Shown here: positions 1 to 64,000 of the stretch, piece after piece
Numbering within the stretch: position 1 is the first letter of the stretch
Layout of the letters: each line of letters opens with the position of its first letter
Source of the DNA: Candidatus Zhuqueibacterota bacterium
Lineage (GTDB): Bacteria > Zhuqueibacterota > Zhuqueibacteria > Residuimicrobiales > Krinioviventaceae
DNA length: 64,000 nucleotides
Assembly (NCBI GenBank): GCA_034521575.1
Contig: JAXHMJ010000002.1
Coordinates: forward strand, 1,001,089-1,065,088
Direction of reading: 5' to 3'
The notes under the pieces: model-generated
Seen by the model: only the letters and a program-made list of their open reading frames with translations
Told to the model about the DNA's origin: nothing
The model's database searches: none
Made by a program: the position numbers and the translations under genes

Positions 1-1
1 C

Positions 2-1141
2 ACCTGGAAAGAATATGATGAAGAACATCCGGGATTCCTAAAGCCGATTAAAAACCATTTCACGGTCAGTCCGCGCATCGGTATTTCCTTCCCGATCACC
101 GTGAATTCAAAATTTTACTTTAACTATGGGCATTTCCGCTCCAATCCGCCCTATTACACCATGTATCTGTACCGCTACCGCTATGACAAGAACGGGCTGT
201 ACGACATGTCAAATCCCAATCTGGCACCGCCTCGCACCATCTCTTACGAACTGGGTACGGCCGTGAACATTTACCAGAATCTGGTGGTGCGGTTGTCCGG
301 GTATTCGAAAGATGTAACCGGCAAGCATGGTGAAATCACATACCAGAATGCGGCCGGAAACCTGGATTACGATGCCTGGGCCAACAATGAATATGAGGAC
401 ATTCAGGGATTCGAGATCAATATCGCCAAAAAGGACAACAGCTGGGTAACGGGCTGGGTCAATTTCAATTATATGCTAAAAAAATCCGGTCTCAGCGGCC
501 GTGAACTGATAACCGACGTGACCATCAACAACGACCAGGAAGGGCTGTACAGAGGTCAGGAATCGCGCGCCCTTCCCGTACCGGAACTGAACGCTAACAT
601 CACATTTCGTTCGCCGCGCGACTGGGGTCCGGAGCTGATGGGGCTGCATGTCCTCGGCAGCTGGAATTTGACCCTGTTCGGAGAATGGGAAGCCGGAGAT
701 TATTTTACCTGGAATCCTCTGAACGAACTGCATGTGAGTGACAATATGCGCTGGCCGAGTTATTATATGCTGGATATGAAAGTGACCAAAACATTCAGCA
801 TCGGCGGACTCAATACCACCTTTTACATTGATGCCAGCAATGTACTGAATTTAAAAATGAACATGATGCATCGCGGGTATGCCTTTGAATACGTATCCGG
901 TACGGATATGGAGGAACGTCCGGACTTTTTCCGGTACATGGCCTCTCTGCAGCTGCCGCGTTACGATTCGCCAAAGTATGATCAGCTGCGGGAACGCTAT
1001 CCGGGATATTTTATACCCGGCGATGACAAGGTCGGTGATCTGCGTTCATCGGATCAATCGTATATCAATGATCCCAAAAATACATACTGGTATTATGGCA
1101 GACCCAGAGATATCTGGTTCGGTTTGCGGTTCAGTTTCTAA
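2..1141 (+). CDS. Outer-membrane beta-barrel, probably the C-terminal part of a TonB-dependent/SusC-like receptor. The 5' end lies outside the window.
   Basis: The reading frame is open from the first base of the window. The protein ends ...RPRDIWFGLRFSF with a terminal aromatic residue, typical of OM beta-barrels. It has alternating amphipathic beta-strand segments rich in Y/G/N. A T9SS cargo gene and a PorV-like gene follow immediately. Confidence 0.5.
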   Translation, partial: TWKEYDEEHPGFLKPIKNHFTVSPRIGISFPITVNSKFYFNYGHFRSNPPYYTMYLYRYRYDKNGLYDMSNPNLAPPRTISYELGTAVNIYQNLVVRLSGYSKDVTGKHGEITYQNAAGNLDYDAWANNEYEDIQGFEINIAKKDNSWVTGWVNFNYMLKKSGLSGRELITDVTINNDQEGLYRGQESRALPVPELNANITFRSPRDWGPELMGLHVLGSWNLTLFGEWEAGDYFTWNPLNELHVSDNMRWPSYYMLDMKVTKTFSIGGLNTTFYIDASNVLNLKMNMMHRGYAFEYVSGTDMEERPDFFRYMASLQLPRYDSPKYDQLRERYPGYFIPGDDKVGDLRSSDQSYINDPKNTYWYYGRPRDIWFGLRFSF

Positions 1142-1144
1142 ACT

Positions 1145-3324
1145 ATGGAGTCTTTAATGAATGTTCTAAATTTTTTCAAAAACAAAATATTGTATATGCC
1201 GCTGCTGACGGTGATGGTTGCAGCCCTGATTGCAGGCTCTTCTGCACTGATCGCCCAAACCCAGCCCGAACTTGAAAAGGCACAAATCCGCATGGGACAT
1301 GTTTGGTGCGGTGTTACGGCGAACGGCGGCAAGGGTAATTTCGATTATCGTGCAGGATTTTTTCCGAATGATTATGACATATTGGGGGTCCGTGGCCAAT
1401 ACCGGGAAGCCTGGGCCGGAGGCGGTTTTCAGTTGACCACCACCAACTGGGTGGATCCGCTGGATTCCCTGCATATTGCCGCTATTTACGGTCCGACAAA
1501 TGAATTCAGGCCGATCGGCAAAGTGGTCGAGCCCATGACCAATTTTATCCGTTACACCTATCCGGAAGAGACGGTAGATTTTCAGACGGTTGATCTGGAA
1601 CCGTTTGGCGCTCATGCGCCGGAACAATTCGGCGAGGAAACCTACGATCAGGTCCTTAAAGTGACGACGGAAAACATTCTCGGTGTTGAGGTCAAGCGCA
1701 AGATCATGGCCTGGACGCAGAATTTTCACAATGATTATATTCTGGTGGATGTCACCCTAACCAGTGTCATCGACTCGACACTCTATGATTTTTATATCAA
1801 TATGAAATTAAACGGAGAAAACACATTTCGTTCAAACGGCAACAATCCCAGTCCGGCGGCCGGGGAGCGTTTTGATCCGGCTGTCACCTGGCAGCATTAT
1901 TACGGCGGACGAGTGGGTGATTCACTGCGTGTGTTTTACGAGTACAGCGCCGATGAGCCGGAAGAAACCGGAGATGATATGGGCGCGCCGGCGCCGTCTC
2001 AGGGCGGACGGCTTTTAAATCCCAACTATATCTGGTATTCTATACTGCATGCATCCGAAACACCGTTTTCCGATCCTTCGGAAGACCAGGATGATTTTCT
2101 ACAGCCGCGCGTTACCTATATCGGCAAAGACAATCTGATTCCCTATAATGAACAGGGGGATGAATTCGGCAGTAAAAATTACTGGGCAATTCGGGGCGGC
2201 TATTCTGAATTCTGGCCTATGACCGGCAATACCTGGCCGAACACATTTCACGGCGGCAACAGTGATGAAATGGGCAGTGCGGATTATGCCAGTCATCCCG
2301 GCGGCAGCCATCAGGCCGGCAACTCTAAAATGTGGTCCAGCTTTGGGCCTTACACTCTTGAACCCGGCAAAAGCATCCGCATTGTTTATGCGAGCGGCTA
2401 TACCGGTCTGAGCCTTGAAATGGCCAAACAGGTGGGTGAACAGTGGTTGGAAGAAACCCTAAAAGATCCGCCGGGCATTCCGAATGAACGCAGCGGATAT
2501 TTTCCAGACAATTTTGTATTTCCTCAAGGCGCCACAGAAATGGACAAGATCAAAGACCGCTGGCTCAGCACCGGTATCGATTCAGTTATGAAAAGCGCCA
2601 GTCGGGCCAAATGGAATTTTAAACAAAAGTACCAGGTGCCGCAGGCTCCGCCTCCCCCTTCCATGGTTGAGATCACCGGACTCGGTACCGGCGTTGAAAT
2701 CCGCTGGTCGAATAGCGGGGCTGAGGAGATGGACAATTTTGCCGGACACCGGATTATGCGCCGAATCTCCAATATGGACACCGTGTTTTATCAGGAAATT
2801 TACAGAACAAGTCCTGATGATAAAGCTGATGAACATCTTTATGTGGACAAGGATGTGCTGATCGGCGCCCAGTACTATTACTATATTCAGGCCATAGCGC
2901 GTATTCCGGAGAATGATTTAAAGGCACATCCCACCAGCCGCGGCAAACTCATTTACAGCAGCCGGGTACTGGAGCCCAATATTTACTGGATCAATCCTCC
3001 GCATTTTTCACAACAGGACCTGAACAAAATCCGAATCGTGCCGAACCCATACAATATCAATGATCCTCTGCTGGTGGAACAGGGATTCACAGATCAGCGT
3101 GCGATTCAGTTTTTCAACCTGCCTCCAGGATCACCATCAAGATCTTTACAGAACACGGTGACCTGGTCCAGACGATTGAACACGACAGTCCGGTGAATTC
3201 CGGACACGTGAACTGGGATATGATCACAAAAAATCAGCAAATCATCAACAGCGGCGTATACATCGCTGTTTTTGAAAAACCCGACGGCTCTGTCTCTTAT
3301 CAAAAATTTGTGGTCGTCCGCTAA
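1145..3324 (+). CDS. Secreted protein with a T9SS C-terminal sorting domain (Por_Secre_tail) and an FN3-like domain. Function is unknown and it may be a polysaccharide-active enzyme. The gene is interrupted by a -1 frameshift near 3128-3131.
   Basis: The 683-aa ORF 1145..3196 has an N-terminal signal-like segment MPLLTVMVAALIAGSSALIAQT, with alternative starts at 1163 and 1196. Its end, ...IVPNPYNINDPLLVEQGFTDQRAIQFFNLP, is the first half of a T9SS C-terminal domain. The rest, ITIKIFTEHGDLVQTIEHDSPVNSGHVNWDMITKNQQIINSGVYIAVFEKPDGSVSYQKFVVVR*, is encoded in the -1 frame at 3130..3324. An FN3-like segment (EITGLGTGVEIRW...YYYYIQAIA) precedes the C-terminal domain. Confidence 0.6.
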
Positions 3325-3344
3325 GAAACAAGGAGAATGTTCTC

Positions 3345-4367: not shown

Positions 4368-4451
4368 GATCGTTCACATAACAAGAGTGAACTGTGGGAA
4401 GGCGAAAAAAACTCTTATAAATGTGAACACTTAACCAAACAAGGAGGAAAC

Positions 4452-7400
4452 ATGAAGAGAGGATGGATAGTAACCCTTGGTGTGATATGCGCGTTGTTTG
4501 CTGTCACACAGCTGAATGCACAGTGGCTGATCTATGATGCCAGTGTGCTTCCGGCTGAAACCGGGACCGGAGAGTACACACTGGATCTCACCAGTGTCAG
4601 TGATAATTCACCGGGCGAAAATTTTGTCGAGGAAATTATTGCTGATCCGGATATTCCCGGTAATCAATTACTCAAGTACCTGCATCCGGACGGCAAAACT
4701 ATGTACCGGTATTACTTTGATGATGCTTACAGCGACTCGGCGTTTACACTTATGGCTCGGGTAAAGGCTGAACGCGATGAAGCCTTTGACCGGGCATTTG
4801 ATCTGCAATGGAGAAACGCCAATGCCGGCAGCCGGGACGAACTGCGCATCTGGCCGGCGGACAGTACTCTCGAACTGGAAAAAGCCGATGTTGAGATCAA
4901 AGTCGATATGGACCTTTACGGATGGCACACCTACCGTATTGCAGTCGATGGCGATAAAGCCACTGTTTACATTGATGAAAATCCGGTTGCTGTGGTCAGC
5001 GGTGTCTCCGGTTCGTCCAGCGGTGATCAGTACATCAAAATCGGCGACGGCTCCGGTGATGCCATAGGCGGATACCTGGACTGGTGCATTCTCGACCCTT
5101 CCGGTGCTTATGCTCCGGGCGAAGGCAATGCCCTGCCTGAAGATCTGTATGTCGAAGGCGCTCAGGAAGAGGTTTCTCCCTGGCTGGTTTATGATGCCAG
5201 TATACTGCCCTCTGAAACACCGACAGCCGAAAATACTCTGGACCTCACCAGCGTCAGTGACAACTCACCAGGAGCAGGATTTGTACAGGAAATCATCGAT
5301 GATCCGGATCTGGCCGGTAACAAACTGCTAAAGTACCTGCATCCGGACGGCAAAACCATGTACCGGTATTACTTTGATGATGCCTATGCAGATAGTGCGT
5401 TCACCCTCATGGCACGCGTCAAAGGCGAACGCGACGCAGCCTATGACCGCGCGTTTGATTTGCAATGGCGCAATGGAAATGCCGGCACGCGCGATGAACT
5501 GCGGATCAGCCCGGAAGACAGCACTCTGGAACTGGAAAAAGCTGATGTTGAGGTCAAGGTCGATATGGACCTGTACGAATGGCATACCTACCGTATCGCG
5601 GTCAACGGTGATGAGGCGACTGTTTACATTGACGAGTACCCGGTCGCCGAGATCAGCGGCGTGTCCGGTTCGTCCAGCGGCGATCAGTACATCAAGATCG
5701 GCGACGGATACCGGCGATGCCATCGGCGGTTATCTGGACTGGTGTATTCTGGATCGTTCCGGCGCTTATGCGCCCGGTGAAGGTTCGGCTCTGCCCGAAC
5801 ATTTAATTGTAGACGGCGGCAACCAGGACGTCCCGCACTGGCTGATCTACGAAGGCAGCGTGTTGCCCGAGAATACCGGCGGTGGCGGTGATACGCTGGA
5901 CATCACCAGTGTCAGCGACAACTCGCCGGGCGCGGATATGGTGCAGGAAATCATTGACGATCCGGACATTGAAGGCAACAAACTGTTAAAGTACCTGCAG
6001 CCCGACGGCAAAACCATGTTCCGGCATTATTTTGATCGAATCTTATGAGGATTCAACATTCACACTGATGATCCGGGTTAAAGGCGAAAACAATCCGGAA
6101 ACCTATGACCGATCCATAGATATTCAATGGCGCAACGGCAATGCCGGTACACGCGATGAACTGCGCATTTTCCCGGCGGACAGTGTACTGGAACTGGAAA
6201 AAGCGGAAACTGAAATCAAACTGCCGGTGGATTTTTACGAATGGCATACATTCAGAATTGTGGTCAACGGTGATGTAGCGACGGTTTATCTGGATGAAGC
6301 TCAGGAACCTGTACTCAGCGGCACTTCCGGGTTCATCGACAGACGCCAAGTACATCAAATTCGGCAACGGCTCCGGCGATGCCATCGGCGGTTATGTCGA
6401 TTGGTGCATTCTGGACACTTACGGGGCCAATGTGCCGGGTGACGGTTTGCCGCTTCCGGGTTATCTTGAGGTTGATCTGGCCGCTCCGCCTGACATTCCC
6501 CACTGGCTGGTTTATGACGCCGGCGTCCTGCCGGGAGAAACCACAGCCGGCGGCGACACACTTGACCTCTCCGATTTCAGTCAGGATTCGCCGGGCGCCA
6601 CATTTGTCGAAGACATTGTGGATGACAATGATATTGAAAACAACAAACTGCTGAAATATCTGCAACCCGACGGTGAACGCATGTACCGCCACTATTTCAA
6701 GGAAGAATTTAAAGATTCCCTGTTCACATTAATGGCGCGCGTGCGCGGTATTGATTCTCCCGCCTATGACCGGGTCTTTGATCTGCAATGGCGCAACGGC
6801 AATGCCAATTCCCGCGATGAACTGCGCATCTGGCCGGAAGACAGCACTCTGGAACTGGAAAAAGCAGGTGTGGAAGTCAAGGTGGACTTGAATCTTTATA
6901 ATTGGCACACCTATCGCATTGTTGTAATTGGTGATTCTGTCGCCGTTTATATCGATGAACGTTCGACTCCATACATCACCGGCGTGTCTACCTCGACCAG
7001 CGACGATAATTACATCAAAATCGGCGACGGGTCCGGTGAAGCCATTGGTGGTTATCTGGATTGGTGCATTCTGAATCTCTATGGAGCAGCAGATCCGGGT
7101 GAAGGTCTGGCTGTTCCCGAAGACCTGTATGTGGATCCCTATATTGCTCCAATTGCTCCCGGCTGGAAAGTGTATGACGCCAATATCCTGCCGCAAATGA
7201 CGGGAAGCGGCGGCGATTCTCTGGATCTCACCAGTATGAGCCAGGATAATCCGGGTCCTGATTTTGTCGAAGAGATCATGGACGATCCGGATGTTCCCGG
7301 CAACAAGATCCTGAAATATCTGCAGCCGAATGGGGAACGTATGTACCGTTATTATTTCCCGGAAGGCTATAGCAAAAAAGCCTATACCATGATGGCGCGG

Positions 7401-8099: not shown

Positions 8100-8106
8100 T
8101 TTCACC

Positions 8107-8153: not shown

Positions 8154-8207
8154 GAAGGCAAACAATCAGGAGATATTATCCAGATATTTAAAACGGCGGA
8201 ACCAGCG

Positions 8208-11206: not shown

Positions 11207-12274
11207 ATGAATCCGCAAACACCTCCCTTTCGCCTGAAACTCGCCATCACATTGTTAAATATTGCTATAGGCTGGCATTTCCTCTACGAAGGTTTGGTCA
11301 AACTCATTGATCCGGCCTGGTCTGCAGCCGGATATTTAATGAATTCAAACGGTTTTTTATCGGGCTTTTTTCAATGGATGGCAGGTTCAGATCTGCTGCT
11401 GACAGCGGTTGATTTTATCAATATTGCCGGACTCGTCATCATCGGTTTGTTTATTATGCTCGGTTTGTTTACCCGATATGCGGCGATAGCCGGAGCATTG
11501 CTGATCGGTTTTTACTATCTGGCGCAACCGCCCTGGACCGCAACCAAAGTAAGTTATGCCAGTGAGGGGCATTATCTGCTGGTGGATAAAAATCTGGTGG
11601 AAATCATCGCTCTCATCGTTATTGCCAATTTACCGCAATCGTGGTATTACGGACTGCAAAGGCTGATTAAGATCAGACTGCCGAAAAAAAACCGGATCAA
11701 AGCGCCGGACGACATCAATCACAACCTGGACGGTCATGCACTAAACCGCCGCAGACTGGTCAAGAATCTGGTTTCCTTGCCGTTTGTCGGCGCCCTGGCA
11801 TTTGCATTCATCAAGAATCACGGCTGGGAAAGCTTTGAAGAGACACAACTCAACAACAAACTGAACCTGAGCGATGCCAGAACCGGAGCTACGGTTCAAG
11901 TCAATGATCCGGTCGATCTGTCCAAACTGAAAAAACCGGTTTCCAAAGGTAATATCGGTGATCTGCAAATCAGCCGTCTGATCTGCGGCGGCAACCTGAT
12001 CAGCGGGTTTGCCCACAGCCGTGATCTGATTTATGTATCCTCCCTGCTGAAAACCTATTTCACAGAGAAAAAGGTACTGGATACCTGGTGGATTTGTGAG
12101 CAATGCGGCATCAACTCGATTGATATGCGTACGGCGCCGCCTGAAATCAATTTGATTCATACTTTTGGAAACAGGGCGGCAACATGCAGTGGATCGCGCG
12201 CGTTTATCCCCAGGAAAAACATTTCAAGGAAAATATCGATATGGCGTTGGACAACGGCGCTTCTGCAGCATTGA
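11207..12274 (+). CDS. DoxX-family membrane protein, N-terminal about 150 aa. A downstream region is fused in frame to it and carries a Tat-like RRRLVK signal, so there is a possible mis-join.
   Basis: The DoxX signature is LLNIAIGWHFLYEGLVKLIDPAWSAAGY, followed by 4 TM helices. At about residue 170 the sequence HALNRRRLVKNLVSLPFVGALAFAFIKN looks like a twin-arginine signal. The 3' tail (ATCSGSRAFIPRKNISRK...) overlaps the next ORF and looks non-coding, which suggests a frameshift near 12145-12185. Confidence 0.5.
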   Translation: MNPQTPPFRLKLAITLLNIAIGWHFLYEGLVKLIDPAWSAAGYLMNSNGFLSGFFQWMAGSDLLLTAVDFINIAGLVIIGLFIMLGLFTRYAAIAGALLIGFYYLAQPPWTATKVSYASEGHYLLVDKNLVEIIALIVIANLPQSWYYGLQRLIKIRLPKKNRIKAPDDINHNLDGHALNRRRLVKNLVSLPFVGALAFAFIKNHGWESFEETQLNNKLNLSDARTGATVQVNDPVDLSKLKKPVSKGNIGDLQISRLICGGNLISGFAHSRDLIYVSSLLKTYFTEKKVLDTWWICEQCGINSIDMRTAPPEINLIHTFGNRAATCSGSRAFIPRKNISRKISIWRWTTALLQH

Positions 12275-33151: not shown

Positions 33152-33160
33152 ATGTTCTCC

Positions 33161-42168: not shown

Positions 42169-42177
42169 TTTTTCTCC

Positions 42178-47771: not shown

Positions 47772-50487
47772 TCAGGACAGCATCTGCAGATTCTTTTCCA
47801 GTTTATCAAGATTCATTTCCCAATCGGCTTTTTTCTGGCGTTCTTTTTCAACCACATCTTTGGGAGCCCGGGAAATAAATTTTTCATTATTCAATTTTTT
47901 ATTCAAACCTTCCAGCTGTTTTTCAAGACGTGTCATTTCTTTTCCAAGGCGTTCTTTTTCCATCTTGACATCAATCAAATCAGTTAGGGGCATATACATT
48001 TCCATACCCTGCACCACTGCAGTTGCCGAGAGCTCGGGCCGCTCTGATCCAAAGGATAGGCTCTCCAGACGTGAAAGACGTTTGACAGCAATTTCATTAT
48101 CCTCAATAATCCGCTGTTTTGCAGGATCAGTGATATTCATGACAAGTTCAGCCTGTTTGCCCGGTGGTATATTCATTTCTCCGCGAATATTGCGGACCGC
48201 ACCGATTGTCTGCTGCAGCAATGAAAAGGTTTCTTCAGCAGACGGGTTGATCCAATCATTATCGACTACCGGGTAGCTCTCGTGCATAATGGAGCGTTTC
48301 TCATCGACTGCATGTTCATTGCCGGGAAATGCCTGCCAGATTTCTTCTGTGATAAACGGCATCATGGGATGCAATAGCTTAATACTGCTCTCCATGACAA
48401 AAAACGCAACAGACCGGCCGATTTGCTGTTTGCGCACATCCGAATCATCATAAAAGCGCAATTTTACCCATTCCACATACCAGTCACAAAACTCGCTCCA
48501 GACAAAGCTGTACAAGTCATGTGCGGCATCGTTCAGCCTGAACTCTTTCATAGACCGATCCACATCTTTGATGGTCTTGTTCAGCCGGCTCAGAATCCAG
48601 CGATCCGATAAATCAAATTCATCCTGAGAGATAGATTCCAGAGTTAGCAATTCCTGCGACGCATCCAGATTCATCAACACAAAACGGACGGCGTTCCAAA
48701 GTTTGTTGCAGAACCGCTGACCCAGTTCCACTAAAGTATGATCAAAGTGCACATCTCCACCCAGAGGCGTTGAATACAGCATGGTCATACGCACTGCATC
48801 AGCGCCATAGGCCGGGACTCCGTCTTTAAAAGTCGGATTTTCCGGAATAAAATGCTGCATCTGTTCCGGTTCCGCACCGTCGATCAGCCACAGGGGATCC
48901 GGAGAGTTTCCGAGTGACTTTGACATTTTTTTGCCCTGCAAATCGCGTATCATTCCGTTGAAATAAACATCAGTGAACGGAATATCATCCATAAATTCCA
49001 GAGAAGCCATGATCATACGGGCAACCCAGAAAAAAATAATATCCGGACCGGTAGCCAGTGTATCTGTTGGGAAAAAAGTGTATAGATCCCGAGTATCTTC
49101 CGGCCAGCCCAGGGTGCTGAACGGCCACAGCCAAGATGAAAACCAGGTATCGAGAACATCTTCATCCTGACGCAGTTCTGTACTGCCGCATTCAGCGCAT
49201 TTGTCCGGGGTTTCCCTGGAAACCGTATGATGGCCTTTTTCGCAGTACCAGACCGGAATGCGGTGTCCCCACCATATCTGACGGCTGATACACCAGTCGC
49301 GGATATTTTCCATCCAGTGAAAATAGGTTTCTTCCCAGTGTTTAGGATAAAAACGAATGTTACCCTCGCGCACAACCTTGATAGCCGGTTCAGCCAGAGG
49401 TTTCATTTTTACAAACCACTGGTCGGACAGATAGGGTTCGACAATATCATTAGATCGATAACAGCGCGGTACGGAAATCACTTTTTTCTGTTCACTTTTC
49501 ACCAATCCCAGTTCTGCAAGATCTTTTAATATTTGTTTTCGGGCTTTGAACCGGTCCATTCCTTCATACGCTCCGGCATTCTCGTTCATGCTGCCGTCCG
49601 GTGCAATTACCGATACTTGTTTGAGGTTGTGCCGCTGGCCCACCTGAAAATCATTAAAATCATGTGCCGGAGTGATCTTAACCGCGCCGCTGCCCAGTTC
49701 AGGATCGGCGTGTTCATCGGCAATGATGGGGATATCTCTATTTATCAATGGCAGCTTGACGGTTTTCCCGATAAAGTCAGTATAACGTTCATCTTCCGGA
49801 TGTACGGCAACCGCAGTATCACCCAGCATGGTTTCCGGCCGGGTGGTTGCCACGACAATCTCACCGGAACCATCGGATAATGGATAAGTGAGTTCCCAGA
49901 ATCCCCCGGTTTCCTCCTTGTTATCCACCTCTTCATCAGCCAATGCAGTATGGCAATAAGGGCACCAGTTGATGAGTCGGCGTCCCCGGTATATCAATCC
50001 CTTTTCGTACAAACTGACAAAGACTTCACGTACAGCATTGGAAAGATCTTCATCCACTGGTAAAACATTCGCGATCCCAGTCACAGGAAGCGCCGAGTTT
50101 TCGAAGCTGCTGCAAAATGATGCCGCCATATTTTTCTTTCCATTCCCACACCCGCTCGAGGAATTTTTCACGGCCCAGATCATATCGGGTTTTGTCTTGC
50201 TGCTGTAAGGCAGCTTCCACTTTGTTTTGCGTGGCAATACCGGCATGGTCCGTACCGGGCATCCACAAGGTCTCATACCCCTGCATCTTTTTCCAGCGAA
50301 TCAACAGGTCCTGGACGGTATTGTTCAAAACGTGTCCCATGGTCAGCATACCTGTCACATTCGGAGGCGGTATGACGATGGTAAATGTTGGTTTTTCCGT
50401 ATCCGAATCAGCGTGAAAAAACTTGTTTTTTTCCCAGTATTGATACCACTTGTTTTCAACGTTCTTCGGTTCGTAAACTTTATCCAT
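47772..50487 (-). CDS. valS: Valine--tRNA ligase, split by a +1 frameshift near 50050-50060.
   Basis: The N-terminal ORF 50050..50487 (MDKVYEPKNVENKWYQYWEK...PPPNVTGMLTMGHVLN, the HIGH region) ends ...CDWDRECFTSG*. The 834-aa ORF continues ...DEDLSNAVREVFVSLYEKGLIYRG and includes KMSKS and the C-terminal coiled coil. Skipping one A restores ...CFTVDEDLSNAVREVF. Confidence 0.85.
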
Positions 50488-50781: not shown

Positions 50782-53287
50782 ATGAAAGGGGTTAACATCA
50801 TGAGGTGTAGAGCGTATTCAGGGTTATGGGTAGTATTCTATGTTCTAACTGCTTTTTTTCTGTTCAGCACCACACTTTCGGCCGCTCCGACGGTAAACGG
50901 TTTGTTTTACGGAGATAACGATCAAAGTCAATACCAATTTTTGGCTGAAAATGGCACAGGCCGCGGTACAATGTATTACTACCTTGAGCAGGATGTTTTG
51001 TATATTGCTGTAATTGTAAGTCCCTCCGTAAATGACAATGTGATAGACGATGGGCAAACCGCATATGCAAACAGCGTGGGCTGGACTCCTCCCCACCAGG
51101 CTGAAAAGCTGATTCAATCCGATCATTTGAACTTTACGTTCACAGCAGACGGCGTTTCCTACACCTGGAAACAGGGCTATCTTTATGATGCAGATGGTGA
51201 TAAAAGCCCCTCTGAAGCGGACTGGCTGTCTGACTATCATGACGGCAGTCTGGGAGGCGGAACCCTACCACCCGGACTCGTATCTGCCAGCTCGATGCAG
51301 TGGAATATGAATAACAGTCCATGGGTGAGCACATTCACCGGGACCAGCAATGATTGGAAATCCCCCTATGATCCGGCGAGTCCGAACAGCTTGACGGCTC
51401 CATATGAACTGGGTTATCCGCACTGGGACAGTGTGAACGAGTGGGAATGGGCGATGGTGTATGAAATGAGCATTCCCATAAGCAATTATTCCGGCGCCAT
51501 AACACTGCAGGTAAACAGCGCGCACAATTCTCCTTCCAAAGACGATGAGGAAGACATTCCCATTCCTCCGGTGACACTCACAGATTATGGTGATCTGCCC
51601 AGCCCTTTTCATACGCTGAGCACTGATAATGGAGCCAGTCACTTGATTTTAACAGAAAACAATCCCACTCTGGGCAGTAGTGTGGACGCTGAAAATGACG
51701 GTCAACCTGACGGCAAAGCCAGGGGTGATGACAATAATTACCATGATGATGAAGACGGCATTCAATTCAAATCAGCTGTTTCACCCGATTATGAGGCAAT
51801 ACTTTACGTTACTGTGAAGAATACAGGATACCTGAGCGCCTGGATGGATTTTAACGGCAATGGAAATTTTGATACAGGTGAGCAATTTCTCTCGGATGTA
51901 ACCCTGTCAACCGGCACACACAGTTTAACCTTTACCCCACCGGCGGATGCAGTGACTGGAGTCACGTATGCCCGCTTTCGATACAGCACAGAAACCGGAT
52001 TAACGGCAAATGGTTCAGCTGCAGACGGCGAAGTAGAAGATTACCGGATTGAAATCCTGTCATTGCAATATGTGGATTACGGCGATGCTTTTAGTGATAA
52101 CATTATGAATGTATGGTGGCCGGAAGCCGGGAGAGGCGGTTGACGCAACCCGAGCCTATTTGGGAGACATGGTAGACACAGAGGGCGTATACACCGGTAG
52201 TTTGGCTGCCGATGCAGACGACAATAATGATGATACGAATGATGAAGACGGCATCACCTTTTACCATGATTATAACAATGACGGAATCTGGGTGGAAAAA
52301 ACAGATAATATTTTTGTCAGTAATTATACCTATCAGATCAAAGTCACGGTCAATCTGGGCAGCGGCTATTCAGCTTTATTAGCCGGATGGTTTGATTTCT
52401 CCGCAGACGGTATTTTTGGAAACTTTGACAATGAGATTATTATCAATAACGATCTGTTCCAGAATGGTCTGGGCAAAACGCAACCCGGCGACTTGAGTTT
52501 GGCAAAAACTGCCGCCACATTGACCCGCTACTATACATTTACCGTTCCCGATATTGTTGGCGGAGATTACACCTTTATCCGATTCAGGCTGGACACCTAT
52601 ACTGAAGGTGGTGGACTTTTATCTTCCGGATTTGGCGCGGGATACGGCGAGGTCGAAGATTATTACGCCACTCTGGATGATACACCGCCGGTCTCTAGCC
52701 AATTAACCTCATTCGAGGCGGAACAATCGGAAAAAGGCATCCGCTTATTCTGGAACTATGAAAACCTGCAGAACCTTGTAGGGTTCAATGTGCTGCGAAG
52801 CGTTGAAGAAGCAGGTCAATATAACCAAATCAACAAGTCGCTCTTGTTGTGCCTGGAGCCAAACCCGCAGTCTTTTACTTTTACGGATTATGATATCCTG
52901 AAAAATAAAAACTATTTTTACAAACTTGAGGCGCTCGATCTGAACGGTAAAAGCACCCTCTACGGTCCGGTTTGCGCTGCATGGAACACGGGAATTGAAG
53001 AGATACCGGAAAATTATAAATTCGTGGATAATTATCCGAATCCCTTTAATTCAAATACCTGGTTTGAATATGTACTGGCCTCTGCAGGGCATGTCAAATT
53101 ACGTATCTATAATATAAAAGGCGAACTCGTCAGGACTCTGGTTGACTCGCATCAATCAAAAGGATCGTACAAGCTGAAATGGAATGCAGAAAATGATAGA
53201 GGCCGATTCGTACCGACAGGCATTTACATCTATCAATTCCAATGCGGCGACTATGATAAAACAGGCCGTATGTTGTATATGAAATAA
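50782..53287 (+). CDS. T9SS cargo protein containing GEVED domains. The gene is split by a +1 frameshift near 52125-52140.
   Basis: The N-terminus is a signal peptide (alternative start ATG 50800). The motifs GEVEDYRIEIL (ORF1) and GYGEVEDYYATLDD (ORF2) are GEVED-type. The C-terminus DNYPNPFNSNTWFEYVL...GIYIYQFQCGDYDKTGRMLYMK is a T9SS C-terminal domain. ORF1 50782..52143 and ORF2 52109..53287 overlap in adjacent frames. Confidence 0.65.
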
Positions 53288-55692: not shown

Positions 55693-58600
55693 TTGGAGGA
55701 TTCTTTGCAGAGTTATAAAAGAATATTCATTCTGGTCATTATCCTGATTTTACCTGCTTTTGCATATTCCAAGACGTGGAAAATAATGCCGGTGGGTAAT
55801 TCGATCACTGCCGGTGAAGGCAGCAGCTCGGGCAACGGATATCGAGACATATTATACAACAACCTGAGTAATTCCGGATACGATATCGAGTTTGTCGGCC
55901 CCAACGGTGCGCCCTATAACGGTTTTTATCAGAGTGGCGCCAAAATCGATCAATTCTTGCCCGGAGGTTCGCTCAATATTACCGGACAGCTCAACACCTA
56001 TTTCCCGGACATTGTCCTGGTTATGCTGGGAACCAATAACACGGGAAAATGATGCTCCGGGGCCCTATACCAATCCAGCTACAATGGCCGGGAAAATGCA
56101 GACTTTGCTGCAGAACATAGCTCAGCATCAGAGTGTCCGTTATATTCTTGTATGTAAAATCATCCCCAAAATTGTTGAAGGGGAAGCGGAACCCAAGATT
56201 CGTGAGTACAATGCTGAACTTGAAAAAATGTTTTTTGACAATCCGCCCAGTGACAATATTACAGTTGTTGACATGTACTCTGCAGTTACTCTCAGTCAAT
56301 TAACTGACGGTGTGCACCCAAACAATACCGGATATCAAAACATGGCCCTGCGTTATGAACAGGCCATTTCGGATTTAATTGACGAAACGAATCCTGACGA
56401 TAATCCGCCGTCCCGGATCGCATGGAAGCAAGGCTATTCGATTAATTCACAAAGCATTCGACTGGAATGGTTTGCACCCAGCGATGACGGCGCCGCCCGC
56501 TCTGCGAACATTTACGAATTGCGTTATGCAACATTCAATCTGAATGCTTCCAATTTCAAGCAGGGAAAACTGGTCTCTGTCGGGAAACCCGGGGCGCCGG
56601 GTTCTGTTCAAAAAACAGATGTTACAAATCTGCTGCCGGATCAGTCTTATTTCTTTGCAATTCGCGCATGGGATGCGTCAGGCAATGTCGGGCCGTTATC
56701 CGAGAGCATATTTGTAGAGACCAGTGTTGCAGGAATTGAGTATTGTACCGATTTTGGAGACCCTGATTTACCGGACTGGTCCGCCTCGCCTCAGTATGAG
56801 GTTGTGGATTCCAATCTGGTGAACTCTCAATCCGGCGCCCGGCTGGACAGACCTGGCGGTTTACACCTCCACTGCCTACAGTCCGAATGCCTCATCGGTT
56901 GATGCCTCTTTCACCTGGTCAAATTTAGTGGACAATGACGGTATCAACTCAAGCGGTATTGCAATGCTCCTGAACAATCCCGTTTACAGCGAAGCGGACG
57001 GATATCTGGTCCGGGTTCGAAACCGCAGAATTTATCTTGAGATCATTCAGAACGGACAGGCGCAAGCCGGGGTATTAGACTCTGACGATTTTTATAAAGA
57101 CGCTCCTTCTCCCACTCAGGGGGATGAACTAAAGGTTCAATTTTCTTATGATATTTCGTTGGGCAATGTGTTCAATGTGTATCTGGAAAACACCTGGATT
57201 GGTCAGGTCAATGATGTGAACAATTTGCAGGGAAATGCACAGCGTCTTTTCTCCGGCGTTATGCTTTACGGTGGTCAAAACAATGACATTTCCAGCTTTT
57301 GTGTGGCTGTGCCACCTCTCAACGCTTATACTATGAATATTCATACGGGAAACAATGAAACCGGCCAGGTCGATGAAAAGCTTGCCATTCCCCTGGCTGT
57401 TCAGATCACTGATGTCAACGGACAAGGAATTGCCAATGTACCTGTCCAGTTTAATGTAATTTCAGGCAGTGCATTTTTAAGCACAGACTCGATTGGTGAT
57501 ATTTTTGACGGCAACATTTGGTATGAGGCGGAATCCGGCATTCTCGAACAGCCGATGAGTAGTTCCAGTTCATCAACGGCTTCCAATGGAAAGTATATTC
57601 TCGTGCCCAATATCAGCAATGCCAATAACCGGGGTAAAGCGTATTATCGCATTTTCATCCCCAAAACCGATGCCTATGCGCTTTGGCTGCGCGTTGCTGC
57701 TCAAAGCCCCATTGCAAACTCGGGATATATCGCCGTCGGAGACACGTCGGAAGCCGCAAGATGGAATTTCAAAGTAACAGAGGACTGGAAATGGTACCGT
57801 TGGGATCAAAGCTGGGTTCTTGAAAACGGCTTTCTTGATTTCGCCATTAAAAACCGTGAAGCCAACACCTGGTACGACAAAGTACTCTTTACATCCAATT
57901 CCGGCTATACCCCGACCGGCGCCGGCGGCAGCAATCAGGAATTTTCCAATATCACCAATATATCCGGTTTTGCATCGACTCAGGTCACTTTTGGCAACCA
58001 GGCAGAGACTGTAGAAATTGAAGCTTATGCACCGCTTGTCCGAATAACAACCGACAGGTGTTTACATTGACGGTAAATGCAGGCGATCCCAACCAGATGG
58101 CCCGGACCTCAGCATCGACCATAACCGGAAAAGCAGGTGAACTGCTTTCCGAGCCGTTTTCAGTGTCATTAGAGGATAAATACGGCAATCAATGTTCAGG
58201 TGTTAAAGTAAGATTTACGGTCCAGGAAGGGGACGGGACATTTAATAACCGTCAGCAGATTGATGTTTATTCTGATCAGGACGGCAATGCCGAAGTGCTG
58301 TTTAAACTCGGATATCGGGAAGAAAGTATTGTACAGGCCTTTCTTCCGGACTTTCCGAATATACCATCTCTTGAATTCCGCGCTGTTGCGGGTGAAGGAA
58401 TTCCTGTGGCCATAGAGGAACTTGGCGGGAACAATCAAACCGCGCGGGTAACCGAGGCGCTGCCTGAATCCTTGTCCATCAAGATCACTGATGAGAATGG
58501 CAATCCGGTTGAGAATTTTCCGGTGCCGTTTGAACTCATTTCCGGCAACGGCACCATTGACGGCGAATACCCTGTGCGCGTAGATACAACCAACGCAAAT

Positions 58601-61600
58601 GGTATCGCCACGGTCAGAACAACACTTGGCGATACAGCAGGCACCAACATTCATAAAGTACAGGTTGCCCCAAGCGTACCGCTGGATAACGCCCCCATCA
58701 TTTTTAACGCGACAGCGCTGCCGGATGCCCCTTATCAGATTGTCAAAGAATCCGGTGAAGCGCAGACAATTGGCGCCGGGCACACCTTTCACGAACCTCT
58801 AATTGCCCGAATTGTCGATCAATACAACAATGGCATTCCGGAGCACAACCTTGAATTTTATGTGGTCAACGGAGACGGTAACTTTGAACAAAAAGTAGGC
58901 ACTTCAACGGTCGATGCAGACACTGTTTTGACCACGGATGAAACCGGTCGTGTGGAATTGCTGTACACAGCCGGGACCATTGTCGGCAATCACCAGATCC
59001 GGGTTGACGGTGATCCGAAGATTGAGCAGGGATATCGAATTTTTAATCTCAACGTCACTCAGCCGATCCCGCATCGAATCGTAAAAATGTCCGGCGACGC
59101 CCCGCTACAGGCGGAAACTGTCGGATCATTGCTGGCCAAACCCTTTAATGTAAAAATATTAAATGCTTTTGGCAATCCGATTGGAGCCGGCACAGACGTG
59201 GTATTCAAATCCGATCGGGGTAACGGAAAGTTTTACGGTTCAGATTCTGTGATACGGCAAACGGATGCAAATGGCATTGCTTCCGCCCAGTTTACACTGG
59301 GCACAGAGTCAGGCATTCAGACTGCGATTATTTATGTTAAAGGATACAGCAATGTACAAGCCGTGGAATTTAGAGCACAGGCGAATCCTGCCGCTCCATA
59401 CAGAATAATAGCAGACAGTCCCACCGGCTTTGAGGCCAGGGCCGGACAGGGTCCCATTCAATTGCGGGTTTCAAATTTTGGATCAATTTGAAAATCCAAG
59501 ACCGGGACAAAAGGTGACCTTTAGTGTGGGTACAGGGCAACGGACATTTTTCCAACAATTCAACCGTTCGCACCATCGTATCTGACAGCGTTTCAGGCAG
59601 CGCGGTTGTGGACTATTATATGGGTGAAAGCACGGAAACACGCAATATCATTCATGCCGCAGGTCGTTAAGGAAAACAACCAACCGTTGAACGGCAGCCC
59701 TGTCGAATTCCGCGGTACAGTAAAACCGGAAGCACCGGCATCCCTGATCAAACTGCACGGAGATGATCCGATTCAGTCAGCGCCTGTGATGACCATCGCG
59801 CCGGATTCATTTGCAGTGGCTATATTGGATAAATATAATAATCCTGTGCCCAATACAGAAGTGTTGTTCACAGTCACCGGTTCCAATGGTTCTCTGGAAG
59901 GAATGCCTCAAATCACCAAAGTCACCAATTCAGCAGGAGCCGCATGGACCTGGTTAAATCTCGGAACCCATGCTGCTTTATATTCGGATAGCGTACAGGT
60001 GAGTGTCCCCAATATTCCCGATATATCACCCGTGGAATTTGTGGCCACAGCAGAATCCGGCCAGCCGAATCGCATTTACGCGGTTGGGGACAGCAGTTGG
60101 CAGCAGCCCATAGGCCAAACTCAGAAGATATTCCAGCCCGAGGTCAAAATCGTTGACACCTACAACAATCCTGTCATCAACTATGATGTAAACTTTGCAA
60201 TTCTTCAGGGCAGCAGCAGTGTGGACAACAAACAGTCTATTGTCAAGCAAACCAATGATGATGGTATAGCGCAAGTGACATGGCGACTGGGTAACACGCC
60301 TTCGGAACATATTCTGGAAGCGAGCGCTGCGCTCAATTCTGTACCCCTCAACAATTCTCCCGTACGCTTTAATGCTGTTACGGTCACCGGCGCTCCCAAA
60401 TATATTTCGCTTATCAATACGCCGGGAGATACATTGACAGCCGGTCAGAGTATTCCAATTACGCTACGCGTGACGGATACTGCACAAAACCCCATTGCCA
60501 ATCATCCGGTACACCTCAGTGTAACCCATTACAACAGTGACGATGAACACGCGGTATTTGTGGTTGACGGCAAGCTGTATCACCGAAATCACGATCCGTA
60601 CCGATGCCAACGGTTATGCAAACGCCGGATTTATGCCGATTCTTGAAGACAACCAAATTAAAATCCGCTCTTATGATGCAAACAACGCGCCGTTAGACCC
60701 CTCGCCCATCAATCTGTTTGTCTGGGGTATTCCAACACAGGCAAAGCGAATGGAATTGGTATCGGACAGGCAGCATACTGTGGTGGCGGGTCAGCCGCTT
60801 ACGGTGCGGGCCGCGGCTTATGATGCGTTGACAGGCGGAAACCGTATTGACGGACATCGTATCCAGTTTTCAATTCTGGAAGGCGACGGATATCTGCAAT
60901 CTTCAAATTACAGTTTCAGTACAAAAAAAACGACGCAGGGTGAAGCGAGAGAAACCTGGTTTGTCGGTCACAAAACGGATGAACTGAATATCCTCGAATT
61001 AAACGGAGGATCAATACCCGGGTCACCCGATTCAGTTTTCGTTAATGTGCTACCCACCTCACCGTCAGCAGATTCCTGTTCGATCACTTTTTCCGGACAG
61101 TTAAAATCTGATGAGAGTACCTCCGCACAGATCCATGTGACTCTGGTAGATTCATTCGGCAACCCCATTCCGGGTAAAGACATCGAACTGATTGCTGTTA
61201 GCGAGGGCGCAAGTTTTAATCAACCCGAAGAATCTACGAATGATAAGGGAAAAACAATGGGCAAAGTGAAAGCCTCGATTGTTGGCTCCTTAAAAATCAC
61301 TGCATTTGTTCCGGATTATCCATCGCTGAAACTGGACACCATTGCCATTCCGGTCAAACCCGGTCAAGCGTCTCAATTGGCTCTGGTTAATGAAAGCAAT
61401 CAGTTTGTCGGCAACAAGGGCGCCGTTCTGAAAGACTCTCTTGCCGTGATGGCTAAAGACAAAAATGATAATCCCGTGCCGCATACCAACATCAAGTTTG
61501 AACTCAAAACCGGCAACGGGTACTTTGTCGAAAACCGGCAAAAACTTTATTATGAAATGGCCGATTCCAGCGGTATTGCAGCGGTGCATCTTGTCATGGG

Positions 61601-63753
61601 ACCGGAAGAGGATGAAAACTATTTGATCTATGCCACTATTGATCATCCTGATTACGCTGATATCCAGGTTCCGTTTTTGGGGAAATCCAGATCAGCGATC
61701 CCCCCTATTCACTGCGTAAAATTTCCGGTGACAGCTTGACCGGTGCGGTCGGACAAAACTTGTCCTCGCAGCTCGTGGTCCAGGTTATTGACAGCGACAG
61801 CATTCCGGTACGAAACACACCGGTATCATTTACACCCCTGGGAGACAGCGATGTGCGTCTGCTTGATGATACTCCCATTTTAACCGACTATAACGGCTAT
61901 GCCGGCATCCAAATCGGATTTGACAAGCTCAGCGGTTCGCATCAAATTGAAGCCAGATTGTCAGGAAATTCCGACACGATTATTTTTATCGCATTTGCGC
62001 GCGCCGGCGCTGCTTCGCAGCTGCTGGCCGCCAGTCATGCCAAACAAACGGCAACGGTCGGTAAAACTTTTAATGATGTGGTGATCGTTCAGTCACAGGA
62101 CCCGAACGGCAACCCTGTCGGCGGAGTGAAAGTTGAATTCAGTCTAATTGAAGAACCCGGCCCGGAAAATCTCGCCGCGGTGCTGCAACCCAGCACTTTG
62201 ACTACCAATGAGCAGGGTTTAGCCGCTGCGACGATACTAATGGGGCATAAAACAGGTGAGTATATTTTCGAAGCGACATCACCTGATCTACCTGATGAGA
62301 ATGTTCAGTTTAATGTCACCGGAAAAAGTGATCAAGCCTTTTATCTAAGAAAATATGCCGGTGATGAACAGAGTATGACTCGCGGCAGAGAGCTGGTCTA
62401 TCCGTTGGTCGTACAAATCACCGATCAATATGGCAATCCGGTTCACGGAGAAACCGTATATTTTGCCCCGGAAACGGAATCCGGCTATACAGAAAATCAA
62501 ACAACAACAAGCGACAGCAGCGGCCTGGCATCCACACGCTGGACAATCGGTTATCTTGATGTAAATTCATTATTGGCGACCAAAGTCGGCCTAGAGCCCA
62601 ATTTTGTACGTTATTATGCCACCGGTGTTGACAATGCCTTTCCCGAGTTTACTGATATGCCCTCGCAAGTGACGGTTAATTATGGTGAACCCGTAATCAT
62701 TCCACTACATGCAGAGGACGGCGATCAGGACCCGCTCACATTTTCCGTTCTCAATCAACCCTCTAATTCCGAATTTGATGCAGATTCCAATACATTCAGT
62801 CGGACACCCGGGTAGATCAGAAAGGAACCTGGACCGTCAAATTCCAGGTAGAAGACAACAAGTCCGGTTATTTAAAGGGATTTGATATCGATTCGGTCAC
62901 GATTAACGTGATATCCCAAATAAAGATTTATTCGTTTTATCCGACTGATTTGGCGGAAATCCGAAAGCCGGAAATCATTGAATTCTCGATTCGTGTTACA
63001 GATCAGGGCGCATCGCAATTGAACTATCAGTGGTCGGTCGATGGCGTTCCTGAGCCGGTCAATACGAACAGATTTTCGTTTTATAGTACAAAATATGCAC
63101 GCGGCGACCATATCATCAAAGTCATCGTTACGGATGGAATATCATCAGACAGTCTGACATGGAACACGGTAGTGACCAAAGTGGAATTATCAGCATTTGA
63201 AGCTCAGAGTCTGCCGTTTGAAGGTATTCAGTTGGTCTGGGAAACCGCAAATGAGGTGAATAACGCCGGATTTAATGTGCTGAGGAGCAACAGTGAGGCA
63301 GGCCCGTTTGAAAAAGTGAATCCGCGGTTGATTCCCGCATCGCCCAAAGGGCACTATACTTTTACAGACTCGACCGCAGCCGGCGGACATACATTCTATT
63401 ATAAACTCGAGGATCAGAGCATCAGCGGCTATAGCAATCAAAGTGAAGCCATTAGGGTTAAAGCCGAATTCCCGGAAGAATATAAACTGCTGCAAAACTT
63501 TCCCAACCCCTTTAATCCGGAGACGAATATCAGATTCCAGCTTCCGGAGAAATCCGACACTCGTATTTCTATTTACAACATCCGGGGTCAATTGGTCAGA
63601 ACTCTGGTCAACAGCAAGTTGGCGCCCGGATATTATGAACTTTCATGGAATGGTAAAAACAACCAGAATATGCAGGTTGCTTCAGGCGTTTATTACTATC
63701 GCTTTCAGTCCAATGATTATCAAGCAATCAAGAAAATGGTTTTACTCAAGTAA
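55693..63753 (+). CDS. Giant T9SS-secreted multidomain adhesin or enzyme of about 2,700 aa. The domain order is signal peptide, SGNH/GDSL hydrolase, FN3, LamG-like, CBM-like (YEAESG...) domain, about 10 Big_1-type Ig-like repeats, He_PIG-like domain, T9SS C-terminal domain. The gene is fragmented by at least 9 frameshifts.
   Basis: Start is TTG 55693 or 55705, the latter after GGAGGA. The signal peptide is KRIFILVIILILPAFAYS. SGNH blocks are GNSITAG, LGTNN and DGVHPN. The FN3 domain reads SIRLEWFAPSDDG...YFFAIRAWD. Repeated ...ITD.NGNPV.N.PV.F....G.G......T.DANGIA... units are Big_1-like. The end NFPNPFNPETNIRFQLP...KKMVLLK* is a T9SS C-terminal domain. The ORF pieces are 55693..56052, 55892..56902, 56928..58070, 58058..59491, 59606..60646, 60537..61739, 61736..62815 and 62908..63753. 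Protein-like sequence continues across every junction in a neighbouring frame. Confidence 0.6.
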
Positions 63754-63765
63754 AGGCAAATAAAA

Positions 63766-63791
63766 AGGCCATCTACCTGGATGGCCTTTTT
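63766..63791 (+). terminator. Rho-independent terminator after the adhesin gene.
   Basis: AGGCCATC tacctg GATGGCCT TTTTT. Confidence 0.7.
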
Positions 63792-64000
63792 GAGTCATAA
63801 AAATGAATATTCAATTTTTGATATGAACCACCAGGCAAACCCCCAATCGGGTCAATAATTTGACCGATATTTGAATAAATTCATTACTCAGGCTCAAACT
63901 CTGTCCCATTCTGATCGTTTCTTCCTTTAACTCCCATTTTGTACCATTCAGATAATCTATATTCACCTCATCTGCTAACGGCACAATCGAGAAACCGTCT

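Follow-up and report, generated by a model that had tools for sequence, protein, structure and literature searches.

The window analysed in this study, the whole 64,000-nucleotide stretch of contig JAXHMJ010000002.1, belongs to ASO49, a metagenome-assembled genome (MAG) of candidate division KSB1 from soil of the Salar de Ascotan. Exact look-ups revealed that its open reading frames (ORFs) correspond to the public proteins MDZ7722646-694, with locus tags of the form U5R06_*. A preliminary description of this DNA had claimed that proteins in a list of genes switch seamlessly into a neighbouring frame at 20 or more places. All 20 of the listed frame breaks were present, and each amounts to a net change of one base, 14 being insertions and 6 deletions. 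They are carried by nine genes, among them valS, which is essential, and in all nine (9/9) a single base edit per site restored one continuous ORF without internal stops. Thirteen sites were mapped on intact orthologues (one in valS, two in an encapsulin gene, one in a LOG-family gene and nine in a giant adhesin gene), and three, in a LamG-like gene, on that gene's own intact repeat. The remaining sites were placed through homologues (DoxX fusion), a family model (IS transposase), weak models of the C-terminal domain (CTD) (T9SS CTD protein) and frame logic (GEVED protein).

Several of the affected genes on the forward strand encode T9SS cargo. The gene of a T9SS CTD protein (1145-3325) has lost one base at 3126..3128 (about 3127), between FFNLPP and RITIKIF, where CC(C/A)AGG is one base short; adding a base gave a 726-aa ORF, and weak CTD models (CHU_C, Por_Secre_tail and the PorZ C-terminus) bridge the junction. 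The LamG-like cargo gene (4452-8099) carries three insertions, which were located by frameshift-aware alignment against its intact repeat 1. The first, at 5708..5710 (5709; GGA[T]ACC), and the second, at 6036..6038 (6037; GAT[C]GAA), do not lie in homopolymers, and the third, at 6329..6334 (about 6329), expands G2 to G3 or T1 to T2. In the gene of the GEVED-domain cargo (50782-53287), one base has been gained within a 32-nt overlap of the two frames (52109..52140), probably by expansion of G2 to G3 at about 52129. Its removal gave an ORF of 834 aa that includes a signal peptide as well as a CTD, and a DYGD...DDEDGI repeat unit bridges the junction. No GEVED orthologue spanning the break was found; one candidate contig (L084) begins only at 52191.

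Nine breaks fall in the gene of the giant GDSL/Ig-like T9SS adhesin (55693-63753, forward strand), and local alignment around each site was used to place the junctions. Six of them are insertions: at 56046..56048 (56047; A3 to A4), 56827..56829 (56828; TCT[C]AAT), 59469..59471 (59471; T2 to T3), 59527..59529 (59529; G2 to G3), 59661..59662 (59662; G1 to G2) and 60583..60585 (60584; CAC[C]GAA), the third, fourth and fifth of these falling within a span of only 192 nt. The other three are deletions, located at 58038..58040 (58039; GT?CCG, likely C3 to C2), at 61699..61705 (61699; a C6 run in which C7 restores the frame) and at 62808..62813 (62811; CCCGGG, either C4 to C3 or G4 to G3). The reconstructed adhesin has 2684 aa and shows 77% identity to an intact orthologue of 2681 aa (P0267), and the pieces between the breaks are individually 72-82% identical to it. 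Approximately 25 homologues are full length, and the family is maintained at about 2,700 aa in approximately 25 KSB1 genomes. The idea that internal repeats had blocked short-read polishing in these cargo genes was rejected because DNA identity among the LamG repeats is only 67-70% and repeats are lacking from the adhesin DNA.

The other affected genes encode diverse proteins. In the DoxX-fusion gene (11207-12774, forward strand), a base is missing from a T4 run at 12163..12166 (about 12166), and T5 restores the frame. The 522-aa reconstruction aligned across the junction, as one uninterrupted stretch from end to end, both to a homologue of 524 aa (P0315) and to more than 15 other full-length homologues of 505-545 aa. 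The encapsulin shell gene (31576-32372, reverse strand) carries two insertions, one at 31675..31677 (31676; DLSI|GYHS, T2 to T3) and the other at 31597..31603, where undoing the expansion of C2 to C3 yields the C terminus FEPRAVVVFE*. Its 264-aa reconstruction is equal in length to intact 264-aa orthologues on two contigs (L082 and L083) and matched the Pfam model over 1-253 of 253 positions and encap_f1 over 1-261 of 261. The LOG/TIGR00730-family gene (33565-34459, reverse strand) has a non-homopolymer insertion at 34155..34157 (34156; GAG[A]CTT), and its reconstruction has 297 aa, as does the intact orthologue on L083. Also on the reverse strand, an IS4-family transposase gene has lost one base in an A7 run at 31028..31034, and A8 gives a single 388-aa ORF. 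Such a contraction of A8 to A7 is a textbook case of Nanopore error. The IS element itself extends over 30122-31431, with inverted repeats of 26 bp and a target duplication of 9 bp (AGTATAAAC).

The frameshift that the preliminary description had reported in valS (47772-50487, reverse strand) was confirmed as an insertion at 50057..50059 (50058), where ACC[A/G]TGGAT stands in place of the expected ACC ATG GAT (or GTG), a context that is not a homopolymer. The junction was located at 50057-50059 by tblastn with an orthologue (P0001) and other ValRS proteins, and the Pfam tRNA-synt_1 model is divided over the two frames (1-134 and 135-413). The reconstructed ValRS has 904 aa, compared with 909 aa in a relative, and identity to the orthologue is unchanged around the break (75% and 81% on the two sides). 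The protein is full length in the approximately 120 best-matching ValRS homologues. We also looked for a second intact valS, and none was found among the 120 best ValRS matches in a search that did not extend to the remaining four MAG contigs. A candidate encoded on a contig of 2.45 Mb (P0016) proved to come from another assembly (ERZ21869602) and to be the syntenic orthologue of this very locus, and an 881-aa ORF at 39523-42168 in the window matched DUF2723/TMEM260-like proteins in Pfam and is itself intact.

Comparison with orthologues by tblastn and frameshift-aware alignment, which had been proposed as a check, revealed that relatives are intact at each site open to comparison and that the reconstructed ORFs are collinear with the intact orthologues and match them in length, as a long-read artefact would predict. 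For example, valS, the adhesin gene and the encapsulin gene are whole in a congener represented in Logan run SRR7614767, and the LOG and encapsulin genes are whole in ENA assembly ERZ10759799. Independent sequence of the same organism was found only in one Logan contig (L081, from SRR26473340), which is 100% identical to the window over 42100-44336. This region overlaps no break, so that the contig carries no information for or against the 20 sites. The best match in a scan of genome contigs for the same organism reached at most 70% amino-acid identity, two metagenome scans did not find the organism, a 214-aa query over the valS junction gave no same-species match, and an exact look-up of the N-terminal valS fragment gave no match.

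We further examined how the breaks are distributed and in which sequence contexts they occur. Their overall density is 0.34 per kb of coding sequence, which is within the range for R9.4.1 consensus sequences. The T9SS cargo genes comprise 30% of the coding bases yet contain 14 of the 20 breaks (P = 2.5e-4, for a category picked post hoc), a 5.5-fold enrichment, and the longest break-free stretch covers 16.4 kb of coding sequence (P = 0.03). Approximately 20 other genes of the window were compared with relatives and showed no additional frame breaks, and an Rfam scan of the window gave no matches. Among the genic homopolymers of at least 6 nt, 109 of 110 are in frame. All six deletions are compatible with contraction of a run (A8 to A7, C7 to C6, T5 to T4 and others), whereas most of the 14 insertions lie in runs of one to three bases or between unlike bases, the latter accounting for five. 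The lesion spectrum is unlike natural slippage, with 14 insertions against 6 deletions, five insertions between unlike bases and three within 192 nt. Not a single nonsense codon was found in about 7,800 corrected codons, so that the mixture of lesions expected of decaying genes is missing.

The window originated in an error-prone long-read assembly. The reads of ASO49 were obtained on a Nanopore R9.4.1 MinION (FLO-MIN106D), assembled with metaFlye and polished with Medaka, after which Illumina polishing was performed with Polypolish and POLCA (PMC10673233). The resulting genome, classified as KSB1, UBA2214, consists of 5 contigs with an N50 of 1,173,084 and a GC content of 46.8%, and CheckM gave a completeness of 92.14% and a contamination of 4.4% (PMC10673233 Table S3).

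Taken together, these observations indicate that the 20 breaks are most probably errors of single bases that remained in the consensus of a hybrid Nanopore/Illumina metagenome assembly and not mutations of the organism; we put the probability of this explanation at roughly 0.88. It agrees with the preliminary description, which had favoured artefact over pseudogenisation, and it is well supported because the source assembly is of the R9.4.1 type, one edit per site rescues ORFs of orthologue length, nonsense codons are absent, no second valS was found, relatives are intact and a genuine gene relic in the window looks unlike the break sites. The more specific claim that the errors are of the homopolymer and long-read type held only in part: the long-read source and the six deletions fit it, but most of the insertions and the nearly complete set of in-frame homopolymers do not, and the idea that homopolymer errors caused all the breaks was rejected. 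The six deletions may be classic Nanopore homopolymer contractions that slipped past polishing. At the fourteen insertions, the consensus and short-read polishers may have had conflicting or too few reads, for which a collapse of strain variants and shallow Illumina coverage are likely causes. Two observations run counter to an artefact. First, the dominant R9.4.1 error class, in long homopolymers, is nearly absent; polishing therefore worked at such runs, and the survival of the non-homopolymer insertions needs explaining. Second, the breaks are unevenly spread, clustering in T9SS cargo and leaving the 16.4-kb clean stretch.

Gene-fragmenting indel errors are reportedly a known problem of long-read assemblies, as described by Watson and Warr in Nat Biotechnol in 2019. 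The likeness of the present breaks to known Nanopore and PacBio errors lies in single-base indels that split otherwise intact genes and in the R9.4.1 source; they differ in that typical long-read errors are homopolymer deletions, whereas here we mostly observed insertions outside long homopolymers that survived three rounds of polishing. According to PMC12007338, indels in long-read assemblies break up otherwise intact genes, which gives rise to apparent pseudogenes and reduces the completeness measured with marker genes.

A variant of the artefact explanation, which we regard as possible and put forward only tentatively, is that most insertions arose when co-existing strains were collapsed into one consensus and not from raw Nanopore errors. 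Where the strains differ, the consensus would have taken up both alleles or a mis-aligned neighbour, and the Illumina polishers, meeting two conflicting and seemingly valid corrections, would have left the site unchanged. Consistent with this, at all five non-homopolymer insertions the removal of either of two adjacent bases yields a sensible codon, for example ATG/GTG in valS, TCC/ACC in LamG and CTT/ATT in LOG. It would also fit the clustering of the breaks in surface and secreted genes, which are prone to strain variation, and the correct polishing of the homopolymers. INDEL errors from collapsed allelic variants have been described in long-read consensus sequences, where nearby allelic variants led to wrong read alignments, INDEL errors and truncated ORFs in a collapsed assembly (PMC8445201). 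A comparable process would explain both the non-homopolymer insertions and their clustering here, although that case concerns a diploid eukaryote and ours would involve putative strain heterogeneity in a soil metagenome. Against the collapse of strains, the adhesin belongs to a conserved family that is not obviously hypervariable, and the CheckM contamination is modest.

If the breaks were instead true and very recent decay, real frameshifts would have been fixed in the KSB1 population and would have inactivated the T9SS cargo, encapsulin, LOG and DoxX genes; for valS, either another copy would compensate or the lineage behind this genome would be dying out. Secreted cargo, enriched as it is for breaks, is a plausible target of relaxed selection. 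In addition, the long homopolymers elsewhere are correct, and the assembly is therefore not uniformly poor. A recent IS insertion is also present in the genome, as is at least one gene relic that is real. The relic, a GH106-like gene at 14050-14752, has a TGG to TGA change and further stops, more than 80% of the gene has been lost, and it looks quite different from the 20 break sites. True bacterial pseudogenes resemble the present situation in that several genes are frameshifted with an IS insertion nearby; they differ from it in that nonsense codons, truncation and extra divergence are absent here, insertions are in excess and an essential gene is affected. Under decay, the nine indels of the adhesin would be accompanied by about 3-4 stops if each indel came with roughly 10 substitutions, and neither nonsense codons nor truncations were found in the corrected codons. 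The usual bacterial spectrum consists of deletion and slippage, the opposite of the insertion excess in non-repetitive contexts seen here. The break in valS, for which the 120 best ValRS matches yielded no second copy, the conserved length of the adhesin family and the R9.4.1 basis of the assembly also argue against decay, which we consider improbable.

We give very little credence to the view that the breaks are real and that a natural KSB1 population has very recently passed through a burst of frameshifts biased towards insertions. Such a burst would have disabled mainly T9SS-secreted cargo, namely the conserved 2,700-aa adhesin, the LamG and GEVED proteins and a CTD protein, and also valS; if true, the break in valS would point to a mutator, to a lineage in terminal decay or to a novel tolerance of +1 frameshifts.

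Programmed recoding, in which ribosomal frameshifting or transcriptional slippage would bypass the breaks and leave the genes functional, can practically be dismissed: a classic slippery run (A AAA AAA G) with -1 geometry is present at the IS site alone, whereas the other 19 junctions lack a slippery heptamer (the longest runs there being C6 at 61700 and T4 at 12163) and the orthologues of the affected genes are all single ORFs without a two-frame organisation. Even at the IS site, where the A7-G run lies exactly at the frame change and recalls the programmed -1 frameshifting of IS1 and IS3 types, this was judged unlikely. Transposases of the IS4 family differ from those types in being encoded by a single ORF, and the single-ORF family model NF033592 runs straight over the junction, aligning over 24-330 of its 332 positions and scoring 194 bits with the fused protein against 174 bits with the fragment.

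The single-base breaks, which we interpret as consensus errors, have consequences for public records, since they cause gene callers to split or truncate the affected genes. The deposited encapsulin shell protein (MDZ7722674) has 247 aa with a garbled C terminus, the LOG protein is represented by a 115-aa fragment labelled 'hypothetical protein' (MDZ7722679), and a 355-aa fragment stands for the DoxX fusion (MDZ7722653). The LamG cargo was deposited in separate pieces, the first being MDZ7722647 (442 aa), and the accession numbers would accommodate four such pieces, 647-650. Gaps in these numbers suggest that neither valS nor the IS transposase has a protein record. The 92% CheckM completeness of this 5-contig genome is probably depressed by the same indels. 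Most of these insertions, which hybrid polishing had left in place, would escape a frameshift screen confined to homopolymers. Anyone counting pseudogenes, analysing pangenomes, reconstructing metabolism or looking for 'novel small proteins' would also be misled by the breaks. The significance of the finding therefore lies in data quality, with no new biology for the organism itself, in a MAG that stands for a poorly sampled candidate phylum and whose public annotation is already affected.

Judged by its sequence, the organism is a member of candidate division KSB1. Its window is densely coding (approximately 58.8 kb in 44 genes), and the ORFs match exactly the NCBI records MDZ7722646-694 (locus tags U5R06_*), labelled "MAG: candidate division KSB1 bacterium". 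The block at approximately 37.7-50.5 kb, with the gene order DUF4837, LPG synthase, DUF2723, GT4, methyltransferase, RecG, DUF4139 and valS, is syntenic with KSB1 MAGs, and the repaired ValRS showed 83% identity to its best match and approximately 70% to proteins named KSB1. The Salar de Ascotan paper describes one KSB1 MAG, ASO49, from soil and classified as UBA2214, with 5 contigs, 5.26 Mb, a GC content of 46.8%, an N50 of 1,173,084, and CheckM completeness and contamination of 92.14% and 4.4% (PMC10673233). Its MinION FLO-MIN106D (R9.4.1) reads were assembled with metaFlye 2.9 and polished with Medaka, then with Polypolish and POLCA using NovaSeq reads (PMC10673233). Given this provenance and these methods, the window is a polished Nanopore consensus from a complex soil metagenome. 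Leftover frameshifts are a known problem in such consensus sequences (PMC12007338).

The preliminary description had reported at least 20 single-nucleotide frameshifts. Stop-to-stop maps revealed that at every place it named, same-strand ORFs overlap or abut in different frames, and all 20 breaks, in nine genes and each a net gain or loss of one base, were borne out by these maps, by alignments with homologs, repeats and family models, and by frame logic. Comparison with orthologs (tblastn and frameshift-aware alignment) located those in valS, encapsulin, LOG and the giant adhesin. In valS (47772-50487, minus strand), one extra base was found at the junction 50057-50059: Pfam tRNA-synt_1 splits exactly, with positions 1-134 and 135-413 in successive frames, and alignments of ValRS homologs follow one frame up to 50059 and another from 50057. 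The junction reads ACC-AGTG-GAT where ACC-ATG-GAT (CFT-M-DED) is expected, and the extra base is outside a homopolymer. The 881-aa ORF at 39523-42168 was rejected as valS, being an intact DUF2723 protein.

Encapsulin is broken at 31676 and 31597-31603, and LOG at 34156. Two related metagenome contigs have approximately 73% DNA identity and the same gene order: L082, from Logan run SRR7614767, and L083, from ENA assembly ERZ10759799. Encapsulin is whole in both (264 aa), as is LOG in L083 (297 aa). The two contigs share the order hydrolase, LOG, CrcB, DUF190, EncFtn, family-1 encapsulin, PAS histidine kinase and LuxR-type response regulator; this conservation places a fluoride-channel gene pair directly upstream of the encapsulated-ferritin system (31576-33553). 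Mapping of the full-length ortholog P0267 (2681 aa, 77% identity) onto the giant adhesin located nine breaks, at 56047, 56828, 58039, 59471, 59529, 59662, 60584, 61699 and 62811. The trio at 59471-59662 restores the starting frame and, on an ORF map, has the appearance of in-frame stops. Approximately 25 KSB1 genomes encode a homolog of this adhesin at a near-constant length of 2,666-2,724 aa (window 55693-63753; 602-8647 on metagenome contig L087), with an N-terminal GDSL/SGNH hydrolase, fn3, many Big_1/Invasin_D3 Ig-like domains and a T9SS C-terminal sorting domain. Together these proteins form an uncharacterised T9SS cargo family, conserved in the phylum and of very large size.

The LamG cargo (4452-8099) consists of five tandem repeats of approximately 225 aa, LamG/3-keto-disaccharide-hydrolase-like and 67-70% identical as DNA, followed by a Por_Secre_tail domain; alignment of the intact repeat 1 to the broken repeats revealed insertions at 5709, 6037 and approximately 6329. 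The DoxX protein (11207-12774) is broken at approximately 12166, and adding one T yields 522 aa that align end to end, in a single stretch, with the homolog P0315 (524 aa) and with over 15 others of 505-545 aa. It joins a DoxX membrane domain to a C-terminal region without a Pfam family, which has many stand-alone versions of approximately 330 aa. The T9SS-CTD protein lacks one base at approximately 3127, inside its C-terminal sorting domain (between FFNLPP and RITIKIF). Directly downstream of the gene for this 726-aa protein is a PorV/PorQ-family gene (1145-4367), and the C terminus of the protein weakly resembles that of PorZ (NF052228, E = 2e-7, far below cut-off); going by sequence, the protein could be a T9SS component and not cargo. 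The GEVED cargo break was confined to 32 nt (52109-52140), for which no ortholog covering the break was found; once one base is removed, the gene encodes 834 aa, including a signal peptide and a CTD, and a repeat unit crosses the junction. The transposase changes frame at an A7 run (31028-31034). It belongs to a complete IS4-family element (30122-31431; 1310 bp, 26-bp inverted repeats, 9-bp target duplication; AGTATAAAC) between the encapsulin operon and the PAS histidine kinase, absent at the same intergenic spot in L082 and L083. Approximately 20 other window genes compared with relatives revealed no further breaks.

We consider the frame breaks an assembly artefact and not mutations of the organism, with a probability of roughly 0.88. 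This reading, already proposed from the sequence alone, is favoured by several independent lines of evidence: the lesions, the relatives, valS and the contrast with a true relic. Each lesion is one base, and a single edit per site gives an ORF of ortholog length. Identity to orthologs after the breaks is not below that before them, and wherever orthologs from close relatives could be mapped (13 sites, in valS, encapsulin, LOG and adhesin), the relatives are unbroken. Natural slippage mutations look different from this set, in which insertions are in excess, contexts are non-repetitive and 192 nt contain three insertions. An artefact is also favoured because valS is essential and no second copy was found among the 120 best ValRS matches: a single candidate came up, on a 2.45-Mb contig, but it was rejected because that contig is part of another assembly (ERZ21869602) and shares synteny with the window locus.

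Real gene decay is improbable. Nine true indels in one gene would be expected together with many substitutions, some of them stops, but approximately 7,800 corrected codons contained no nonsense codon, truncation or larger indel. What looks like a genuine old pseudogene does exist in the window, a GH106-like hydrolase relic (14050-14752, minus strand; Pfam Glyco_hydro_106 263-326/743 and GLMA_2nd 46-86/138, both below cut-offs). It carries a TGG to TGA change in ELAGAN-stop-TDGF, along with a frame change and two additional stops, lacks more than 80% of the gene, and bears no resemblance to the nine genes with clean breaks. Within it, certain short ORFs of the public annotation (between MDZ7722655 and 661) may have been called spuriously. 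For the IS element, and at this one site only, a real mutation or slippage is possible. Its frame change at A7-G resembles programmed -1 sites, but the single-ORF IS4 family model crosses the junction after one A is added (194 vs 174 bits), and a Nanopore contraction from A8 to A7 is the simpler reading; recoding as an explanation of the breaks is scarcely credible.

The 20 breaks comprise 14 net insertions and six net deletions. All of the deletions are readable as base-run contractions: A8 to A7 (IS), C7 to C6 (61700), T5 to T4 (12163), C4/G4 to 3 (62811) and C3 to C2 (58039 and 3127). Five insertions sit between unlike bases (GGA[T]ACC, GAT[C]GAA, GAG[A]CTT, CC[A/G]TG and TCT[C]AAT), and the remaining nine lengthen runs of 1-3 bases; because a randomly inserted base matches a neighbor by chance about half the time, the insertions look context-independent. 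Among the 110 genic homopolymers of at least 6 nt (33 of at least 7 nt), only one, the IS run, is the site of a break. Thus, the label "homopolymer type" of the preliminary description holds for only a minority of sites. The window exemplifies the gene-fragmenting indel errors familiar from long-read assemblies; its departure from the usual pattern is that the errors left are mostly non-homopolymer insertions, concentrated in a few genes.

The T9SS cargo genes hold 14 of the 20 breaks in 30% of the coding bases (binomial P = 2.5e-4, for a category chosen post hoc), at 0.80 per kb vs 0.15 per kb elsewhere, a 5.5-fold enrichment; the longest run of coding sequence free of breaks measures 16.4 kb (P = 0.03). 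Internal DNA repeats were rejected as the cause and do not explain this clustering. Because long homopolymers are almost all correct, polishing evidently worked for the commonest Nanopore error, and the survival of non-homopolymer insertions calls for an explanation. Our best guess is that co-existing strains may have been merged into one consensus at the insertion sites, and that polishers, faced with two competing corrections, would have left the draft as it was. Collapsing of allelic variants is a described source of INDEL errors (PMC8445201). At all five non-homopolymer insertions, removal of either of two adjacent bases leaves a sensible codon. Low Illumina depth may also have contributed. 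Approximately 30 window ORFs looked up in the Logan assembly of SRR26473340 returned one contig of the organism, L081, the only independent sequence of it found, whose 2,237-bp match to 42100-44336 is 100% identical and takes in four 7-nt homopolymers. This contig suggests that SRR26473340 holds accurate short reads with the genome at low depth.

In the public annotation, encapsulin is already garbled, LOG is a fragment named "hypothetical", DoxX is likewise a fragment, and the pieces of the LamG cargo are called as separate proteins; judging by missing accession numbers, valS and the transposase seem to have no protein record. The frame breaks matter in practice through the annotation that they affect, and they are no new biological feature of the organism.
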